Below, piece by piece: positions 3,815 to 46,940 of a stretch of 64,000 nucleotides of DNA. Positions within the stretch are counted from its first letter, which is position 1. Each line of letters begins with the position of its first letter. A model generated the notes under the pieces. That model was not told the origin of the DNA, searched no databases, and saw only the letters and a program-made list of their open reading frames with translations. Made by a program: the position numbers and the translations under genes. Source of the stretch: a virus; the IMG/VR virus record IMGVR_UViG_3300020045_004509, positions 32,001 to 96,000 of that record. One strand, written 5' to 3'.

Positions 3815-5872
3815 TTACACAACTGTTATTTTAACAAACGCAGTCCAAGCCGACCCATTCCAATACCGTTCCCATATTTGATTAGTTTGTACTGGTCTAT
3901 ACAATTGATATGCTTGACTATCACCAGATACTGCCCTATATGTCGTAAATTTGCCTGCGATACCTCCTGGAAAAGACGCAGCATCAGCACCACCAATTTG
4001 AAAGTGGGTTTCTACTCCTGATGCAAAGTTGGACAATGGATACGAAAAACTTGCTGCTGGAGCATAATAAATTACACTTGATGGTATTGGATACCAATCA
4101 AACGGAGCGGTTCCGTTAAGATTGATATATTCAGAAACTGCGTTATATGGTGAGTTGTAGGATTTAAATCTAAATCCTACCTTCCAATTTCCAGTTGTTG
4201 GAATTGACCCAAAATCTCTTGTTGGTGTAGTTTGTTGAACCCATTTACTACCATCATATAAACAAACACCACAATTATAATCAGTCATTAATGCCCCAGT
4301 AGATGGAGTGCTAATATCTGATAATCCACACACAATAACTGAAGAAAACGGAACAAGTATGCCTCCAGCTACGGTAACATTAGCTTTTGTTACGCCAGTT
4401 GTTTCCCTTCCTATATTCCAATTTGATCCATACAGATTAACAGTACCAGTACCCGATCCCCCAGATTGTTCTCGTATAACAATTGTCTTTAGTGTAGAAG
4501 TAGGAAACAAGGTAGAGTAATTAGACGCATTATTAATTGTCAATTCTCGAATTCCATCATTTTTAACTTTTACCAACGTATGGGCTACATCACTTGTTCT
4601 TTTATCAACAATAGTAATACTATTGATTTTTAAAGTGTTTATTGTAGATTTACTAACAACAATAGACGCACTATTAGCTCCAACATAGGTATCATCATAC
4701 TCAACATATCCATTAGACAAATTAAGATTATCAACATTCACATTATAAATATAAACTGGGGTTCTATTACCACCCCCAACAGTTCTCATCGCCTTACCCC
4801 CAAAATTTGATACGTTTATACAACCCGCAATTCCTGTTGTGAGAGGGTCATATGATCCAACTTGAATAATAGCTTCAGCAAAATCGCCATATACACCATC
4901 AATGTTTATCTTGTCAGCTTTATATCCTGATAATGTATAAACCACAGCACCCCGCCACGTATTTTGCCCATCTTTTGTTTGACCTCTAATATTTTTTATA
5001 GACACGTTTTCGATATTTTGGGCAACTGTGCCAACTCCGGCCCATTCTACACCACACAATAAAGCAACCATATCATCGTTAGTGTACCCACTGATGTTTT
5101 CAATAAGTCCATTGCTAGATGATCCTGTTACTCCATCTCGACGTTTACCGCCTGTAGGCGTAATTGCATCAATTGTCTGGTCAAATTTAATATCATGGAA
5201 GTGAAAATTATTACAATTCCAGTGATTTATACCATGGCCTCGCACTGTCTTAATTGTGAGATTACCAACTTCCATTCCATTTACATTCACTAAATAGAAT
5301 GCCTTACTTATATCAAATGCGGCACCATCAGCTACTTGATCTCCTTGATTCACATCGTTTCCGTTAACAATACCACCAATCCATTTGATATTAGTCAATC
5401 CTGTTGTCACTGTACGAATCATGAAGCATCTAGCCATATCTTTCAAATAGATTTCTGCATTATCATCACATAAAACAGTTAACCCAGAAGTCAAATATAT
5501 AGGAAAACCAATAGTATATCTGGCAGGGCCAACAAGACGAATAGTTTTATTACCAGAAGAAAAAGCTGTATTCAGTACAGAAGATAAATCTTGGGTAGTA
5601 GATAGACTTTTTGCTGCAGTAATTTGACCAGATGTCATATAATTAAATATACTATCGTATTCATCTAATTTATCTTGCACATCAGTAGCAACAGCCCCAA
5701 CCCCTCCATGCATATACCCCACCATTCCAGCCCCAGAACTACTACCTAATTCTGAAGCTCCAATCAAATTAGTTGTATTTGCAGGAAGGGTTAAAGTAAC
5801 ATCAGAAGCAGTATTAGTTGCTGCAAGGGCTACTGAACCACCAAGGGGTGTTTTTAGTTTTAGTTTAGACAT
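3815..5872 (-). CDS. Tailspike/tail fibre with beta-helix (pectate lyase-like) domain and C-terminal knob
   Basis: N-terminal anchor SSSGAGMVGY..GGVGAVATDVQDKL, beta-helix-like repeats (DGV...NDDMVAL), C-terminal AYQLY...IWERYWNGSAWTAF. Confidence 0.75.
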   Translation of the reverse strand: MSKLKLKTPLGGSVALAATNTASDVTLTLPANTTNLIGASELGSSSGAGMVGYMHGGVGAVATDVQDKLDEYDSIFNYMTSGQITAAKSLSTTQDLSSVLNTAFSSGNKTIRLVGPARYTIGFPIYLTSGLTVLCDDNAEIYLKDMARCFMIRTVTTGLTNIKWIGGIVNGNDVNQGDQVADGAAFDISKAFYLVNVNGMEVGNLTIKTVRGHGINHWNCNNFHFHDIKFDQTIDAITPTGGKRRDGVTGSSSNGLIENISGYTNDDMVALLCGVEWAGVGTVAQNIENVSIKNIRGQTKDGQNTWRGAVVYTLSGYKADKINIDGVYGDFAEAIIQVGSYDPLTTGIAGCINVSNFGGKAMRTVGGGNRTPVYIYNVNVDNLNLSNGYVEYDDTYVGANSASIVVSKSTINTLKINSITIVDKRTSDVAHTLVKVKNDGIRELTINNASNYSTLFPTSTLKTIVIREQSGGSGTGTVNLYGSNWNIGRETTGVTKANVTVAGGILVPFSSVIVCGLSDISTPSTGALMTDYNCGVCLYDGSKWVQQTTPTRDFGSIPTTGNWKVGFRFKSYNSPYNAVSEYINLNGTAPFDWYPIPSSVIYYAPAASFSYPLSNFASGVETHFQIGGADAASFPGGIAGKFTTYRAVSGDSQAYQLYRPVQTNQIWERYWNGSAWTAFVKITVV

Positions 5873-32516: not shown

Positions 32517-33893
32517 TTATAGGGGCTTGGTATAGGTTAGTCTATTTAAACGCAACCAAGACGATTCTGATGCTGTTTGGGGGGCATTTAAAGATGGTTG
32601 AAATAGATTCTTAAAGATTGCTTCTAAAACATTAACCACAATTGAATTTCCACATTGCATAGCAATAGCTTGATCAGTTATATTAGATGGACATTTCTTT
32701 AGATTAGCATAATCTTCAATTGTAAACCCCATAAGCTTTAATCGTTCAATTGGGGTCAACATACGAATCCGATATTGATCAGTAAAAATTCTCGGAAGAT
32801 CATACTTACCTGACATCAAAGTTGGGGCTGGTCTTGCTTCAACATCCAACCTTTGCATTGTCTTATAGACAGAATAACCTTCAAGGGTAATTGGATTTGA
32901 TACTAAAACTTTTGGTCGTTCTTTAGAATCCCCAGCAGTAAGAGTAACTAAAAATCCAGATTCTGGACACACAACATTATCTTGTTTATAGATAGTTGCC
33001 CCAAGGATAAATTTATCTTCAACTAACCCTTTCTGAATGCCCCCATCAGAAATCTTATCAGACAATTCTTTCGGAAGAAATTTCATCAATCTATCCATAT
33101 AGTATTTTTCATCCACAATCGGATCAAGAACATCTTTCAGAGTCTTGGATGTACGTTTACCCCTTGGGAAAGCAAATGTGCTAAATGAAATATTCTTATC
33201 ATGGGTATTATCATTCAGAATAGATACAGCGAATACCCTTTGACGAATCTGTGGTATTCCAAAATCAGTTGCAATCAAAGTATCATACTTGGTTTCATAC
33301 CCCAATGTTTCCAAAAAGTTAATCCAGATATTGAAATGGGCCAAATGTTTAGATTGAAGTAGGGCCGCTACATTTTCCATCAGAAGATATGAAGGAAGCC
33401 GATTTTCTTCTTTCAATTCAAGAAGAATCCGTTCAATTTCCCAAAGTAATGATGATGAAGTTTTTGTTCCCTTAGCTAGTCCTTTTTGTTGACCAGCAAT
33501 AGAAATTGCCTGACACGGAAATGAATATGTCAGAAGATCAATATTCGGAAGATTCTTTCCTTGAATTTCTAAAATCGATCCAAAATTATTTGATACCAAA
33601 TGGCATTTGTATAGTTCCCGAAGTTTCACTGGATTCAATTTTGATAGATTCTCATATGGATGTTTACCATCAGAAGAAAATGTAAACTTAGATAGTTCTT
33701 CTAAAATAGTCTTATCATCAGGAATAACCATCTGTTGAATCAGATCAAGATGATGAATATACCCATACGAAATAATAGAATCAATATTCCATTCAGAAAT
33801 GGCAACTACTTCATGATTGACCCCAATATTTTTCAGGGCTTTTGTTTGGGCACCAATACCAGCAAATGTTTCAAATACTTTCAATGTTTTCAT
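32517..33893 (-). CDS. C5-cytosine DNA methyltransferase
   Basis: FAGIGA (I), YSFPCQ (IV), MENV (VI), QIRQRVF (VIII), RMLTPIERLKLMGF (IX), GNSIVV (X). Confidence 0.93.
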   Translation of the reverse strand: MKTLKVFETFAGIGAQTKALKNIGVNHEVVAISEWNIDSIISYGYIHHLDLIQQMVIPDDKTILEELSKFTFSSDGKHPYENLSKLNPVKLRELYKCHLVSNNFGSILEIQGKNLPNIDLLTYSFPCQAISIAGQQKGLAKGTKTSSSLLWEIERILLELKEENRLPSYLLMENVAALLQSKHLAHFNIWINFLETLGYETKYDTLIATDFGIPQIRQRVFAVSILNDNTHDKNISFSTFAFPRGKRTSKTLKDVLDPIVDEKYYMDRLMKFLPKELSDKISDGGIQKGLVEDKFILGATIYKQDNVVCPESGFLVTLTAGDSKERPKVLVSNPITLEGYSVYKTMQRLDVEARPAPTLMSGKYDLPRIFTDQYRIRMLTPIERLKLMGFTIEDYANLKKCPSNITDQAIAMQCGNSIVVNVLEAIFKNLFQPSLNAPQTASESSWLRLNRLTYTKPL

Positions 33894-35212
33894 TTCAGGG
33901 TAGCCAGAGCTTTTTCAAAGTTTTGTTTAGGGGTAGTCAGATTCAGATCAACTAACTTGACAGTGTTTTCGTTAATCAAAGAATCTAACTTAGAAATTTC
34001 ATCGATAGTGCATTCATATAAAGGAATCCGAATGAATGTCTTACCATGATCCAATCCAGTCACATGTTCAAAAACAAAATCCAACAGATCACATTTGGTC
34101 ATCTTCTTGAAGTTGAATGTTTCCTTGATAACTTCAGAAATAAATTTCTTCTTGTCAATCAGATATTGTAGTTCGGTTTCAATCTTTTTAACGTCATAGT
34201 TGATCTTATCTTGAAATTTAGTCAATCGGTAATCACAGAAATAAGCAATTAGTTCTGCAACAGATTTGAAGATTTTCAGTTTACCATCAATACCTAATGT
34301 AGTCAAGTTTTCTGTATGAAATTTCTGAAGTTTGAAATACTTGATTGGGTCTTTATCAATAGATTCTTTTTGCGCGCCAGTGGTTTTGATTGAGAATGAG
34401 AACCCCTGATCTGAACAAGAGTCTTCGTAGTCCTTAATCAAATCCTTATCAACCATTGTGTTCAAAGCAGTGATATACGATTCCCTTGAATACCCAACAG
34501 GTAGTTCAGAAATCTTATATGTGTACTTTCCAACGTATTCAACTATACCTAATGTTGACCATGAAGTTTCAGATTCCTTTTGGATAATACCATTGAAATG
34601 AGGAAATGTTGGGGGAATGGGTTCATTTGCATCTAAAAACTTCTTGGGATTCTTTAGATAGTCTTTTGTTGCTTTGGTAATGTCTTTGATTGAGTGGGGC
34701 AAAATATTGCAAGCAAAACCTACCGCTAGGCCAGATACACCATTGCAAATTACCCATGGAATAATAGGAAGATAATGAATCGGCTCGGGTGATTCTTCAT
34801 CATTAGATGATTGGGTGACTTCATTATCAATGAAAATCTTTTTGAATTCCGGGGATAATGAACAGAAAATATAACGGGCTGCTGCACTTTCTGGAATCAA
34901 TCTTGACCCAAAATTTCCATATCCCTCAAAGACAGGGCAATTATTATTCCAATCTGCGGTTAATGTAACAATAGCCCCTTCAGCAGATGCCTCCCCATGA
35001 TGAAATCCGTACTTAGCAATGCTTGCAGCCAATTCTGCACATTTTACCCGTTTTGTTGGATACTCTGTCAACATAGAATAAACCAATTTCCTAGCAGAAT
35101 TTTTCAGTCCATCAATTGCAGACGGAATCGCTCGATTCTGAAGAACATACATTGAGTAATCCAGTAGATCAGTGTCAACGATTTCGGTAATAGTTTTATT
35201 AGTAATTTTCAT
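33890..35212 (-). CDS. 52: DNA topoisomerase II subunit gp52 (GyrA/ParC-like)
   Basis: RAIPSAIDGLK, HHGEASA, GNFGSR, AAARY catalytic Tyr; start overlaps the gene 60 stop. Confidence 0.95.
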   Translation of the reverse strand: MKITNKTITEIVDTDLLDYSMYVLQNRAIPSAIDGLKNSARKLVYSMLTEYPTKRVKCAELAASIAKYGFHHGEASAEGAIVTLTADWNNNCPVFEGYGNFGSRLIPESAAARYIFCSLSPEFKKIFIDNEVTQSSNDEESPEPIHYLPIIPWVICNGVSGLAVGFACNILPHSIKDITKATKDYLKNPKKFLDANEPIPPTFPHFNGIIQKESETSWSTLGIVEYVGKYTYKISELPVGYSRESYITALNTMVDKDLIKDYEDSCSDQGFSFSIKTTGAQKESIDKDPIKYFKLQKFHTENLTTLGIDGKLKIFKSVAELIAYFCDYRLTKFQDKINYDVKKIETELQYLIDKKKFISEVIKETFNFKKMTKCDLLDFVFEHVTGLDHGKTFIRIPLYECTIDEISKLDSLINENTVKLVDLNLTTPKQNFEKALATLK

Positions 35213-35735
35213 TTCAACATCCATTCTTTACGGGCTTGGGCATTATCACCAAAAAACATTTTTAAGTGATCCAAGTCTTGTTTGTTCGCAGACACTTCAA
35301 TCAGATTAGAATTCACTAAACATTCCTTATATACTTCCTTTGGCATGGAACCAAGACCTTTGAAGAATTGTACATCATAACCCTTTGAATTGAACTTATC
35401 AAATTCTTCTTTTGTATAAAAAGTTTTGATGTCTTTACCCTTTTTGCAGTAGTAAAGGGGGGCAAGACAGCGATACACCCGTTTTTCTTCAAATAGCTCA
35501 GGCCAATTTGATAGAAGATTCAATAACAACCCGAAAATATGTGACCCAATATCTCTTTTGATGTGTATTTTATAGGTAGCCGAAGCTACCCATCTTTATC
35601 TAAATCGGTAAATGCAATAATTTTACCATAGTTAATAGTAGATGTTCTTGCCGTTTTTTTGATTACGTTTTGATTTGCAAAATATGCATCCATGTTAGAT
35701 TTGGTTGGTTGAATTTTCTTTATTTCTGGCTTCAT
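35209..35735 (-). CDS. 60: Topoisomerase II small subunit gp60, interrupted by a 44-nt coding gap (join 35735-35589 and 35544-35209; 160 aa)
   Basis: Upstream 49 codons end INYGKIIAFTDLDKDG-TAG; downstream frame resumes SHIFGLLLNLLSNWPELF...KGLGS...RKEWM; joining restores the TOPRIM DxDxDGSHI motif. Confidence 0.9.
35545..35593 (-). other. Programmed translational bypass signal
   Basis: Take-off GGG 35591-35589, TAG, hairpin ATGGGTAGC-TTCG-GCTACCTAT, mini-SD GAG 5 nt before landing GGG 35547-35545. Confidence 0.85.
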
Positions 35736-36981
35736 ATATTCTCTCTAAACAGATTGTTAATTTTTCTTCGGTAGACTGATAATCCCAAATTTCAAATAGA
35801 TTATACCCTCGTTCTATAGCAAAATTATTTTTAAGGCGATCTTTCTGTTCTTTTTGCTCTGCTGTAGTGGTTGGGTGAAATGGCATTCTCCAAGTTTCAT
35901 ATTTTTCATCAGACAATCGATCTTTTCTTGGATGCCATAAAGCACCATTGTATTCAATGATAATATTTAATGGTAAAAGACAAAAATCATATAGTTCACC
36001 ATTAAGAACCGTTTCATCCATTAAACAAAATTCTTTAGACCCATTAACCCCAAACATCATATCACTACGCAGATACCCAAGTCGCCTAAGTTTCCTATAC
36101 AATTTAATGAAAAACTTATTTGCTTCTCTTGATGAAGTACCAAAATATTCTGTTGACGACATCAATCGACGCTTATATATCAATTCGCCTTCAACTGCCC
36201 CATATTTTTCAATCAACCCATCTAAAGAACTAGAGTATACCGAACGGGCAATATTTTCATTATATCTTCTGGTTCCTTCTTCCACCCCATATTTATTAAA
36301 CCAATAATCAAGTTTTGATGGATTTTCAAACATTGATTCTGGATGGGTATCTTTGAATTCTTTACACCAAAAATTTCTTGAATTTACGATAGCCTGCGAT
36401 TCTTCTTCAGTATGTCCTTTACCAACCCAATACAATTTTGAAAATGGATTATTTGAAATATCGTCAAACCAACCATTTGCCCGTTGAGTAGCCTTTCCTT
36501 TCGTGCCTTTGTTTGACAAATATTCTTGCACCAATGCTTCATCATTAAACAGTTTAAATAATTCTGCCTTTGACATAGAATTTATACCACGCTTGGCTAA
36601 TACACCACAATGTTTAGTGTTTGGGTCATTGAATGCTGAATTGAATGCTTTTTGTCCTTTATTAGTAAGTTTTAGTTTTGCGTCATCTACACTTAGGCCA
36701 GCACATGTAGTTAAAAACTCTAATGATACAGGATTCAATGTTCTGCATTTACATCCAGTAGTACCACAAAAATACGGTGAATTTTTATAATCCAAGTATG
36801 ATATACCATCGACAACAACCACTAATTTTACCTTAGAATAATTATCGGAAAAATAACATTTATTTCCTTTGAACATATGTTCATATGAACCATATTTTCC
36901 TCTTGTATATTTTCCTATTATAATTTTTAATGTTTGTTCGGATTTCCCATCAAATACTTGACTATCAAATATTGTTTTCAT
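35695..36981 (-). CDS. Free-standing homing endonuclease, Vsr/DUF559-like PD-(D/E)XK fold
   Basis: KYGxEEG repeats, then YDF.....IIIEYNGALWH...KDRLK...A.ERGYNLFEIW; lies between genes 39 and 60; CTAAATA at 37008-37014. Confidence 0.75.
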   Translation of the reverse strand: MKTIFDSQVFDGKSEQTLKIIIGKYTRGKYGSYEHMFKGNKCYFSDNYSKVKLVVVVDGISYLDYKNSPYFCGTTGCKCRTLNPVSLEFLTTCAGLSVDDAKLKLTNKGQKAFNSAFNDPNTKHCGVLAKRGINSMSKAELFKLFNDEALVQEYLSNKGTKGKATQRANGWFDDISNNPFSKLYWVGKGHTEEESQAIVNSRNFWCKEFKDTHPESMFENPSKLDYWFNKYGVEEGTRRYNENIARSVYSSSLDGLIEKYGAVEGELIYKRRLMSSTEYFGTSSREANKFFIKLYRKLRRLGYLRSDMMFGVNGSKEFCLMDETVLNGELYDFCLLPLNIIIEYNGALWHPRKDRLSDEKYETWRMPFHPTTTAEQKEQKDRLKNNFAIERGYNLFEIWDYQSTEEKLTICLERIYEARNKENSTNQI

Positions 36982-37010
36982 TATATTCCTTGGTTGTCGT
37001 AATGGATTAT

Positions 37011-38591
37011 TTAGGGTCGCTTTATACCATCAACATCAACATCAGATAACAAAGTTTTTACCAACATTTCTTTACCTTTATGTATGATAATATCATCAAT
37101 TCCTACGATATAAGCGATGCCATCAAGGACAATTTCAAATAATGATTCAACGATAACTGCTGGTTTACCAAATTCTAATCCAAGAATAGAAGTAAGTTCA
37201 GCAATTTCTTTGTTCTTCATGATATCAATTGGTTTCATCCCATCAATATTCATCACCTTGCCCTTCAAAGGGTAGGCTGCATCAGTTTTTGGATTCCGAA
37301 CTGCGATATGTGGCCCTAATGCTGATAATCCTTCTACAATAAAAATTCTACGTTTTTCTGGATCACTATCAGTGGCAGCTATGTGATTAACAATCCGTAC
37401 CTTAGCAACTGCTTTCTGCTTCTTAGCAAGTAATGCTGCTTCTTCCCTTTCCTTCTTATAAAGAATAGCTGAAATAATCGGATCAATGATTTCGGGTGTA
37501 TTCAGAATTTGCTTTGAAATTTTATCAAAGTCAATATCTTTCAAGTGGGCAGAAACTTCTGCTACTGTGTTTGTTATCCTCATTTTGGTTTGAGAGTCGA
37601 AGCGACAGTTAACGACCCCCCGAAGAATAGAAACAAACGTCAAGTGTTGTTTGATATTGTTCGGAAGAACATCAATCTTATGTTTTTTCTTAATATATTC
37701 CCGAAGATTAGCAATGACTTGATCCATGACAAACGATACATGGGAACCGCCATCTTTAATCCAAAGACCATTCACGTATGAATGTAAGCGAAATTCTTCA
37801 TCCTTTCCAGATGGCCCGAAAATCAATACATTTTTTTCATCTTGTCCAATAACAAATGGTGAACAATACTTTGCTGCGTAATCTTTGATAGATTTGATTT
37901 TGATTTTTTCATCGTTGAACGAAAATGTAATATCTGGATAACAAACTGCAAGATTTTCTAATCTATCCCGAATGAAGTCAATGTGATCTTTGGAAATTGT
38001 GTTAATACCAAACGATTGAATATCAGGAACAAAACTAACACGGGTAAAATGTTTCGTTGAAGGATTCGTTTCTACAGATTTTATCTTAGCAGATTTTCCA
38101 ACAGTAAGTTTCAAGTATGTTTTTCCATCAGACGTTTCCCCAATGAATTCAGATGAAAACACTAAGGTAGCGAAACTTCCAACACCATTCGCCCCAATTG
38201 TTTCCCTATCATCAGAAAAGTTTGACCCTGATCTGGCTTGCGTCCAAGCAATAACTGGTTGGTATGTTTTACCGTGTAGAATAACAGGGATGCCTCGCCC
38301 ATTGTCTTCAATGATAACACGCCAAAAATCACCAGAACATATATCACTTTCCTTCTTAATAGACACACTAATCTTATTAGCAAACTTAAATTGTGTTCGG
38401 ATAGCCTCATCAATTGAGTTATCGCAGATTTCTGAAATAATTTTCAGAAGGCCGGGAATAACATTCAGGGTACTTTGTGTCCCAAAAAACATACCAGAAA
38501 CAGGCTCAACTGATGTTGCTCCTATATACATAGCAGGACGTTTTTTCAAATGTTGAGCATCAGTTAATACTTCAAAATTATCGGTTGCCAT
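37011..38591 (-). CDS. 39: DNA topoisomerase II ATPase subunit gp39
   Basis: RPAMYIG, EICDNSIDE, DNGRGIP, GSNF, GANGVGS, FDSQTK, VEGLSA, PLKGK; ends in a T4 gp39-like extension after LGLEFG. Confidence 0.95.
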   Translation of the reverse strand: MATDNFEVLTDAQHLKKRPAMYIGATSVEPVSGMFFGTQSTLNVIPGLLKIISEICDNSIDEAIRTQFKFANKISVSIKKESDICSGDFWRVIIEDNGRGIPVILHGKTYQPVIAWTQARSGSNFSDDRETIGANGVGSFATLVFSSEFIGETSDGKTYLKLTVGKSAKIKSVETNPSTKHFTRVSFVPDIQSFGINTISKDHIDFIRDRLENLAVCYPDITFSFNDEKIKIKSIKDYAAKYCSPFVIGQDEKNVLIFGPSGKDEEFRLHSYVNGLWIKDGGSHVSFVMDQVIANLREYIKKKHKIDVLPNNIKQHLTFVSILRGVVNCRFDSQTKMRITNTVAEVSAHLKDIDFDKISKQILNTPEIIDPIISAILYKKEREEAALLAKKQKAVAKVRIVNHIAATDSDPEKRRIFIVEGLSALGPHIAVRNPKTDAAYPLKGKVMNIDGMKPIDIMKNKEIAELTSILGLEFGKPAVIVESLFEIVLDGIAYIVGIDDIIIHKGKEMLVKTLLSDVDVDGIKRP

Positions 38592-45960: not shown

Positions 45961-46866
45961 TACCATATTTTAGCACACTCACTATAACATTGACCAAAAG
46001 CAGTGCGAAATGGTTGCTGATCTAATATGCTAAAATATAGTAGCTATTTGTCCATGCCTTCCGATTAGCAAAACGGAATACTTTCAAGACTGGCAGAGGT
46101 ACTTTCTTTCAATTGGCAAGCGACATTTCCATTTGACTAATTATAAATTGTAATTATTTAGATTGCATTTTTCTGAATCCGTATCGCTAGGTATGCGAAA
46201 TACTTTACGCTCATATGATAATATATTTTCAATATCATCCATTACTTCAGGGGACATACCACCAACCCATGTATTACATGTTGATTGGAATGTGTAGCCT
46301 AGTTTGATTTCTTTACCATTTGCCAACGGAAGTGTTAAAATTTTAATGTTGTTCATAATATATTTCCTTTATTAAAATTTATTATTTGTCTTTTTTCACA
46401 ATGTCATATTCATCTTTTGGAACAATATAGTAACCATCAATAGTTACTGTTACCACATCATCAATTGAACTTACTAAAGCAGGCAATCCAGCTTGACGAT
46501 CTTTTTCTGACATAATAACATCACAATTTTTCACATACGATTCATTCATTTTAATTTCCTTGATATATTTGATAACAATAAACCCATCATCATTTCCAGC
46601 CAGAGGTTCAAATAGTGTTAACTAAACAAAACCTAACTCTGGATTTAAAAGAACTTTACAGGCTAATATTTTACACTTGACTGTATGAATTCTAATACCT
46701 AAACTCTGATTTTTAATCGTATGATATTTGACCGTTAAAGGTAAATACGCTTTCGCGTTATCGGTTTGATTATACATCCAAGTATGGTGGGAAACATTTC
46801 AGTTCTCGTTTCCCAAAGAACAGTAATTTCTATTTGATCAGAAATGGAATGGGTATTCTTTACATG

Positions 46867-46940
46867 TCAGTACGGTGGGCCTCGAACCCACATATTCTTG
46901 TTTCCAAAACAAGTCGCCGTCCCCTTGGCACCACATACTG
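46867..46940 (-). tRNA. tRNA-Pro(TGG), CCA not encoded
   Basis: CAGTATG/CGTACTG acceptor, CTTGT-TTTGGAA-ACAAG, GTGGG-TTCGAGG-CCCAC. Confidence 0.85.

Follow-up and report, generated by a model that had tools for sequence, protein, structure and literature searches.

We analyzed a window of 64,000 nucleotides (nt) of viral DNA (IMG/VR virus record IMGVR_UViG_3300020045_004509, bases 32001-96000 of 122,706; the record is estimated to be 70% complete) and find that it very probably holds a homologue of the T4 gene 39/endonuclease/gene 60 mobile cassette, in a distant and uncultured T4-like phage. The cassette splits the gene for the large subunit of topoisomerase II into an upstream, gp39-like open reading frame (ORF1) and a downstream gene 60 homologue (ORF2), whose own coding sequence is broken by a gap of 44 nt. 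An earlier note on this DNA, made from its letters, had read the gap as a T4 gene 60-type ribosomal bypass. That reading is supported: every defining feature that is visible in a sequence is present and homologous to its T4 counterpart. The genes concerned all lie on the minus strand, and positions are those of the window unless a contig is named.

The gene 60 homologue opens with a coding segment of 49 codons (35589-35735) that begins with an ATG at 35735 and ends ...TDLDKDG. Its last sense codon is the take-off codon GGG (Gly49, 35589-35591), equivalent to Gly46 of T4, and an in-frame UAG follows directly (35588-35586). Take-off codon and stop are both held in a predicted stem-loop (35572-35593) of nine pairs, one of them G-U, with the arms AUGGGUAGC and GCUACCUAU joined by a UUCG tetraloop. 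The coding gap (35545-35588) takes in the UAG, the hairpin, an AU-rich spacer, a GAG mini-Shine-Dalgarno (mini-SD; 35553-35555) and, 5 nt further on, the landing codon GGG (35545-35547), which matches the take-off codon; between the hairpin and the landing codon there is no GG dinucleotide. The sequence across the break reads GAU-GGG-UAG-C-UUCG-GCUACCUAU-AAAAUACACAUCAAAA-GAG-AUAUU-GGG-UCA-CAU. After the landing GGG, the frame SHIFGLLLNLLSNWPELF... runs to a stop at 35211-35209 and forms the second coding segment (35209-35544, 111 codons and a stop), which encodes the C-terminal TOPRIM part and the tail of the large subunit (Pfam TOPRIM_C and DNA_gyraseB_C). For the 49-codon ORF, both GGG codons, the TAG, the hairpin and the GAG with its 5 nt, all coordinates and sequence statements of the earlier note hold. 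The idea that TAG might be a sense codon was considered and rejected: because 44 is not a multiple of three, read-through is unworkable, leaving the frame and meeting a TGA. TAG terminates 5 of the 78 long ORFs of the record, and ORFs of at least 80 amino acids under genetic code 11 cover 86% of it, with no hint of reassignment.

Joined at the two GGG codons, the 49 and 111 codons give a protein of 160 amino acids, the same length as T4 gp60. The intact TOPRIM motif that had been claimed for this product is confirmed by alignment with four reference proteins, none of which shows an insertion or deletion at the junction; the identities are 99/152 to the unsplit locus L010, 52/154 to the unsplit GAP161 protein, 54/157 to T4 gp60 and 65/159 to the bypass-free gp60 of phage XG4 (163 amino acids). 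On phrog_7229, the full-length gp60 profile, positions 4-48 are matched by the N part and positions 48-162 by the C part. The 49-codon segment consists of a unique leader (N-terminal extension, NTE, residues 1-32) and a topoisomerase-homologous stretch, TINYGKIIAFTDLDKDG, and also matches phrog_19082, a family of 45-amino acid gp60 N-peptides (E 1.6e-5). The C part, in addition, matches positions 521-637 of phrog_543, is 38% identical to residues 512-622 of GAP161, and occurs as a single copy in the whole record.

Unsplit relatives locate the insertion. With the C-terminal part as query we fetched 24 loci, viral and metagenome contigs giving 12 each, and the gene is continuous in all of them. 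In the closest, with 75% identity over the C part, the sequence is ...LGLEFGKPA-INLNYGKIAIFTDLDYDG-SHIFGLLLNLF. The homology of ORF1 to these loci stops after GKPA and is followed by a tail of 48 amino acids, and the ORF2 stretch TINYGKIIAFTDLDKDG joined across the gap to SHIFGLLLNLL restores the motif. DNA homology to L010 runs as far as 37159 and is taken up again at 35548, at the landing GGG; therefore, approximately 1610 nt stand in place of approximately 51 nt. The insert adds the ORF1 tail, a nuclease gene, a new start for ORF2, the 32-amino acid leader, a copy of the deleted coding stretch and the 44-nt gap. Three short protein relatives of the C part (P0004-P0006; 85-108 amino acids, 63-72% identical) may either belong to sibling cassettes or have been truncated where their contigs end.

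On the sequence comparison, the cassette is homologous to that of T4 (NC_000866, locus L001; gene 39/mobA/gene 60, with a 50-nt bypass), beyond a likeness in outline. In a global alignment from the GAU through the landing codon, 45 positions are identical over 50 window bases (56 in T4), a score that none of 2000 shuffles reaches. From take-off to landing 41/47 positions are identical, as against 79/129 in the leader coding sequence and 91/138 in the first 150 nt after landing; thus the untranslated gap is better conserved than the adjoining coding sequence, and this in a comparison of two phages with 34% identity in gp60. The leader peptide, whose resemblance to that of T4 had been noticed from the letters, is 32.6% identical to it over 43 amino acids. 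The main text of the preprint of Manning and Atkins (2022; bioRxiv 10.1101/2022.08.31.505936; hereafter the preprint, with reference to that text) names the conserved leader residues Y16, Q19, V22, R/K24, Y/F33 and T/S40 in T4 numbering, and all six align with window residues (Y18, Q22, V24, K27, Y36 and T43). The core of the 48-amino acid ORF1 tail (C-terminal extension, CTE; residues 479-526, 37157-37014) aligns with its counterparts in T4 and in three further contigs described below (L034, L035 and L036), while pairwise against T4 alone the match is weak (E 0.4-0.5). A blastn search ("distant" setting) of the 71-nt cassette against isolate phages gives chance matches only (E of at least 0.6). 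It misses T4 itself because the indels break the 11-nt words, so that the closest isolate cassette is unrankable in this way. Megablast of 35100-37100 against isolate phages gives no match.

The two cassettes have in common the host gene, a split point after ...G(E/K)(K/P)A, a bypass at the Gly of DxDxDG, a UAG after the take-off codon, a UUCG hairpin that holds this codon, the GAG mini-SD, the AU-rich spacer, the 160-amino acid product, and homologous ORF1 tails and ORF2 leaders. They differ in the codons (GGA/GGA in T4, GGG/GGG in the window), in the length of the gap (50 nt in T4 and 44 in the window, the 6-nt difference that had been pointed out before), in the mini-SD spacing (6 nt versus 5) and in the enzyme encoded between the halves (HNH MobA versus a 428-amino acid Vsr/I-Bth0305I-like protein). 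The window lacks one C-G pair beside the loop and four bases of the spacer. In these proteins T4 and the window phage are 34-42% identical, and the earlier description of the phage as distant is borne out by the 54/157 identities of its gp60 to that of T4 and by the best isolate match of its gp52 (41.7% identity). The closest isolate is Pseudoalteromonas phage vB_Psh_XG4 (PP712099.1, an unannotated record). Its free-standing gp60 of 163 amino acids (L033:3998-4489), approximately 9 kb from gp52, has a gene 60-type leader that is 44.9% identical to the window leader and no gap, which resembles the "split gene, bypass lost" state of the preprint.

The hairpin carries a change that compensates itself. 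Relative to T4, the third base of the take-off codon is changed from A to G and its partner from U to C, which alignment with the T4 hairpin confirms as the A-U to G-C change proposed earlier. The folding energy is -13.4 kcal/mol, compared with -14.7 for the T4 hairpin. UUCG-loop hairpins with a stem of at least seven pairs are rare: on both strands of the 122,706-base record, which has 709 TTCG sites, there are only two, and the cassette is one of them. The other (8 pairs, at G000:C1:101267, plus strand) lies outside the window. The missing C-G pair next to the loop also deletes a GGG triplet that is present inside the T4 hairpin. Given a GGG take-off codon, this triplet would be a perfect premature landing site.

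Covariation can be followed over six natural cassettes, namely those of the window, T4 and four other viral contigs (L038, L042, L044 and L045). Across them 53 of 54 stem cells are paired, while slid partners pair in 26-37%. The pair at the third take-off base is A-U in two cassettes, G-C in two and U-A in two, and the covariation score is reached by 4 of 500 shuffles. The natural covariation claimed for the window is therefore real, but it is not new, since dozens of homologues with such covariation are reported in the preprint.

Seven more cassettes are located at the same codon in IMG/VR contigs. Three of them (L034-L036) were found by alignment of the window nuclease and its four closest relatives. 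Each has an ORF1 with a CTE, a Vsr-like nuclease (identity to that of the window 44% in L034, 37% in L035 and 32% in L036), an ORF with an NTE that ends in DxDxD(G) followed by TAG, a C part and gp52. The L034 cassette (4751-5248) has a 15-nt gap, GAU-UAG...GAU, which is in frame and has no clear hairpin. L035 (4717-5195) has a 5-nt gap, GAU-UAG-AC, in which the landing GAC overlaps the stop. L036 (4648-5145) has a 27-nt gap, with GGU-UAG, a landing GGU and a CCCC-GAAA-GGGG hairpin. The gaps of L034 and L035 may be hopped, read through or shifted. None of the three has the T4-like UUCG cassette of the window, so within this small group the window stands out in having a Vsr-type nuclease next to a T4-like gap. 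The other four come from pattern scans of viral contigs. A first scan, requiring the full 3' arm, gave five matches, none of them in a topoisomerase gene and all due to chance; a second gave 13, of which four are true cassettes in topoisomerase genes. All four have a UUCG hairpin: L038 (200-260; GGU/GGC, 49-nt gap), L042 (2828-2893; GGG/GGA, 51-nt gap), L044 (5174-5236; GGU/GGC, 48-nt gap) and L045 (59-120; GGA/GGA, 47-nt gap). In L044 the gp39 homologue ends approximately 50 nt before the leader ORF, and hence there is no nuclease gene between them. Over nine cassettes the codon pairs are GGG/GGG, GGA/GGA (twice), GGG/GGA, GGU/GGC (twice), GGU/GGU, GAU/GAU and GAU/GAC, each of which can be read by one tRNA. 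The 49-amino acid leader ORF, used as a query in viral contigs, finds no relative.

Long-range translational bypassing is among the rarest of decoding events, and to our knowledge gene 60 of T4 was its only example in a bacterial virus for three decades. Lang and colleagues reportedly described, in 2014, mitochondrial "byp" elements in the yeast Magnusiomyces capitatus, which are said to share with the window programmed bypassing, a match between the codons of take-off and landing, and an AU-rich 3' part, and to differ in having unrelated sequences, in occurring in many genes and in making no use of a Shine-Dalgarno. The view of T4 as the only case, on which the earlier note relied, does not stand, as Manning and Atkins report dozens of natural homologues. 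Their preprint counts 28 cases from genomes, which fall into six clades, and 13 from metagenomes, always at the same site, the Gly46 or Asp45 codon of DxDxDG in the TOPRIM domain of the topoisomerase II large subunit (Topo2L). The cassettes there have a CTE (approximately 44 amino acids), an NTE and a homologous stretch borne by the insert; take-off and landing happen at codons that match or are wobble-related; a stop or "hungry" codon follows take-off; stem changes are compensated; a mini-SD (GAG, GGA, GGG or AGG) lies 5-7 nt 5' of the landing codon; and premature landing triplets are absent. The window obeys every rule of the preprint that a sequence can be checked against, in site, codons, stop, stem-loop, mini-SD, leader residues and ORF1 tail. 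The preprint also gives a 20-nt gap in an Aeromonas clade and reports that most metagenomic cases take off at Asp. Its codon pairs are GGA/GGA, GGU/GGU, GAC/GAC, GAU/GAU, GGG/GGA, GAU/GAC and GGU/GGC; the pair GGG/GGG is absent from the main text, to which the comparison extends. Literature searches turned up no later work apart from this preprint and mechanistic papers on T4.

Two of the published clades come near to the window. In the preprint, MobA gives way to a GIY-YIG nuclease in clades 9 and 10 and to a VSR nuclease in clade 11. Like the window, clade 11 is of uncultured phage origin and joins a split Topo2L with its two extensions (CTE and NTE) to a bypass cassette, a VSR-type enzyme standing where MobA would be. 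The Proteus-phage clade has a GGG take-off and a GGA landing codon, the pattern that we see in L042. This pattern is like the window in a GGG take-off whose partner in the 3' arm is C, the UAG, the UUCG loop and the GAG mini-SD, and differs from it in the GGA landing codon, the gap, which we count as 51 nt in L042, and a longer CC-UUCG-GG stem tip. In L042, ORF1 and ORF2 are approximately 1 kb apart, a spacing compatible with a MobA-sized gene.

The ORF between the two halves (35695-36981, 428 amino acids) occupies the position of T4 mobA and overlaps the start of gene 60 by 41 nt. Its product has no Pfam match even at E 10, and a sequence search of the PDB gives nothing useful. However, it matches PHROGs families of homing or "HNH" endonucleases and has 1332 relatives at E of at most 0.001, with DUF559 in 3 of 40 aligned relatives. 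An AlphaFold2 (AF2) model has a mean predicted local distance difference test (pLDDT) score of 92.7. In a Foldseek search with this model Vsr is matched with a probability of 1.00 and a TMt of 0.54-0.55, though at E 0.05. By VIA-align, the C-terminal domain (approximately residues 281-428) fits the catalytic domain of I-Bth0305I (3r3p_A) with Z 10.2 and a root-mean-square deviation of 2.6 over 95 of 97 residues, and E. coli Vsr with Z 9.3 and 9.0. Residues S284, E317, D332, E343 and H350 are invariant in 40 relatives, and we assign them to a putative catalytic motif. On this model, the protein is a homing-endonuclease candidate of the Vsr/EDxHD (I-Bth0305I) type, its activity being predicted. 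An HNH-family MobA (269-279 amino acids, on an element of approximately 1.1 kb) was considered for this position and rejected, given the length of 428 amino acids, the Vsr-like fold and the insert of approximately 1610 nt, as compared with 1097-1106 nt for MobA elements in the preprint. Tblastn against the mobA region of T4 finds only weak, sub-significant similarity (E of at least 0.037). On the fold matches, the cassette travels with a Vsr-type enzyme and not with an HNH MobA. If the analogy with T4 holds (Bonocora et al. 2011, in the summary that the preprint gives), the gap would probably disrupt the nuclease target site as well.

The tail of ORF1 ends in a DxDxDG-like motif of its own, SDVDVDG-IKRP-stop in the window (37044-37014, minus strand) and IDKDVDG-SESLW-stop in L036 (3286-3324), which is absent from T4, L034 and L035. 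A second, decayed bypass site was considered here and rejected, as no remnant of a stop-hairpin is found in the DNA after DVDVDG. The motif may be due to chance, or a relic, or a functional second motif. In the last case it might be a second metal-binding motif, and the two cassettes that have it might depend less on efficient bypassing.

By homology with T4, ribosomes most likely do hop at the window cassette. The leader peptide would contact the exit tunnel and slow the ribosome on ORF2, which would halt with the GGG and its peptidyl-tRNA-Gly in the P site and the UAG in the A site. The UUCG hairpin would then form in the A site, the tRNA would release its codon, and the ribosome would slide 44 nt across the AU-rich spacer until the GAG mini-SD pairs with 16S rRNA and places the second GGG in the P site. 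There the same tRNA would re-pair, and translation would continue with Ser-His-Ile... to give the 160-amino acid protein with an intact DxDxDG; termination at the UAG would instead give the 49-amino acid peptide.

Several points weigh against this reading. The hop itself is predicted from the sequence. The sequence is a single metagenome-derived assembly, in which an error within the 44 nt is possible. Upstream of the landing codon the C-part frame has 16 further codons without a stop, so that ORF logic alone permits another kind of frame change. Taken as a whole, the 91-nt stretch folds at only z = -1.8 against shuffles. The covariation comes from six sequences chosen by a pattern that required the loop and part of both arms; with the loop and the inner bases of the arms thus set in advance, pairing near the loop is favored and the informative pairs are the outer ones. 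A near-identical, insert-free "parental" genome was not found, and because the nearest unsplit relative is only 75% identical (protein), the insert boundaries are approximate. Finally, the sole tRNA gene in the 122.7-kb record, which is approximately 70% complete, is a tRNA-Pro (anticodon TGG, 46866-46940, minus strand), so the record offers no phage tRNA-Gly for the hop.

Other explanations can be offered for the interruption. Translation might start anew downstream of the gap, which would leave the large subunit in three pieces and the 49-codon ORF as a relic or a separate small subunit. Gene callers do start the C-terminal fragment at in-frame TTG codons (35529), the SDVDVDG of the ORF1 tail could in principle replace the motif of the 49-codon ORF, and split topoisomerase subunits are known to assemble (preprint). 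Yet the leader residues linked to bypassing are kept in the window, while the preprint reports their selective loss in lineages in which bypassing is lost. Moreover, the TTGs are conserved Leu codons of a LLLN(L/F)F motif that is present also in unsplit genes, no convincing Shine-Dalgarno precedes them, and the gap is more conserved than the coding sequence on either side. We consider internal initiation very unlikely.

A frameshift of -1 (or +2) at GGG-UAG is very unlikely. The gap of 44 nt is equivalent to a -1 change of frame, a stop codon in the A site can stimulate shifts, and upstream of the landing GGG the C-part frame meets no stop until a TAA at 35598-35596. The product would have approximately 176 amino acids, with 16 extra residues inside the DxDxDG region. 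However, the shift must occur within GAU-GGG (35594-35589), where no X XXY YYZ slippery heptamer is found and where GGG would have to re-pair to UGG. It would also place 16 unrelated residues into an invariant motif that is contiguous in T4 and in all 24 unsplit relatives, and it gives no account of why the matched GGG is conserved, why the GAG has T4 spacing or why 45/50 positions agree with a gap that is known to be skipped.

We give equally little credence to a decaying pseudogene, or to the 44 nt being an artefact of assembly or sequencing, with no functional recoding. That the record is one metagenome-derived assembly is in favor of an artefact, but an artefact would not agree with the T4 cassette at 45/50 positions, would not compensate a change in the stem, and would not be accompanied by matching extensions (CTE and NTE) and a nuclease arranged as in T4. 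As for decay, the four surrounding ORFs (ORF1, nuclease, C part and gp52) are intact, the C part is the sole copy in the record, and related cassettes stand at the same codon on seven other contigs.

Least probable of all is that the gap is removed from the RNA, by a mini-intron or other processing, a generic alternative for any interrupted ORF in favor of which nothing specific can be cited: 44 nt is far below the size of a group I or II intron, we know of no precedent for a 44-nt intron, and Rfam gives no match at E of at most 1 in 35300-35900. The homologous gap of T4 is treated as retained in the mRNA and skipped by the ribosome in the literature that the preprint cites.

The genes around the gap complete the arrangement. 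ORF1 (37011-38591, 526 amino acids; Pfam HATPase_c and DNA_gyraseB) encodes the GyrB ATPase and transducer domains of the N-terminal part of the large subunit. Residues 1-478, ending ...LGLEFGKPA, are the homologous part, and the protein is 39% identical to GAP161. Downstream, the gp52-like medium subunit (33890-35224, 444 amino acids; Pfam DNA_topoisoIV, E 5e-78) overlaps the end of gene 60 by 16 nt. Immediately 3' of gp52, a 458-amino acid ORF (32517-33893, minus strand) shows FPCQ and ENV motifs by eye and may encode a DNA cytosine-5 methyltransferase. The sequence CTAAATAA at 37006-37016 (minus strand) overlaps the ORF1 stop, 29 nt upstream of the nuclease ATG. We take it to resemble the T4 late-promoter box. 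A promoter and terminator scan gives nothing beyond what shuffles give.

Standard gene calling misses the gene, as had been claimed. The protein of the record (P0003) is only a C-terminal fragment of 104 amino acids called "gyrase B," and the 49-amino acid ORF is uncalled; for annotation, the two are one gene. Since the existence and the covariation of such variants were published in 2022 (preprint), the gain is incremental, namely one well-documented member and seven located cassettes. Natural variants are nevertheless the cheapest test of the mechanistic model of bypassing. The window variant, with both codons changed, the stem compensated, the GGG inside the hairpin lost, the gap shortened and another nuclease family attached, is a ready-made construct for reporter assays.

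It is tempting to speculate, tentatively, that the gap, the ORF1 tail and the ORF2 leader form a conserved mobile core, into and out of which nucleases of unrelated folds are swapped. If this is true, the window would preserve a long-hop gap close to identical with that of T4, the Vsr-linked gaps of 27, 15 and 5 nt would be the same site in worn-down form, and together they would be a natural series from a long hop driven by a hairpin to a bare hop over a stop, and it would become possible to ask which signals are needed at each hop distance.

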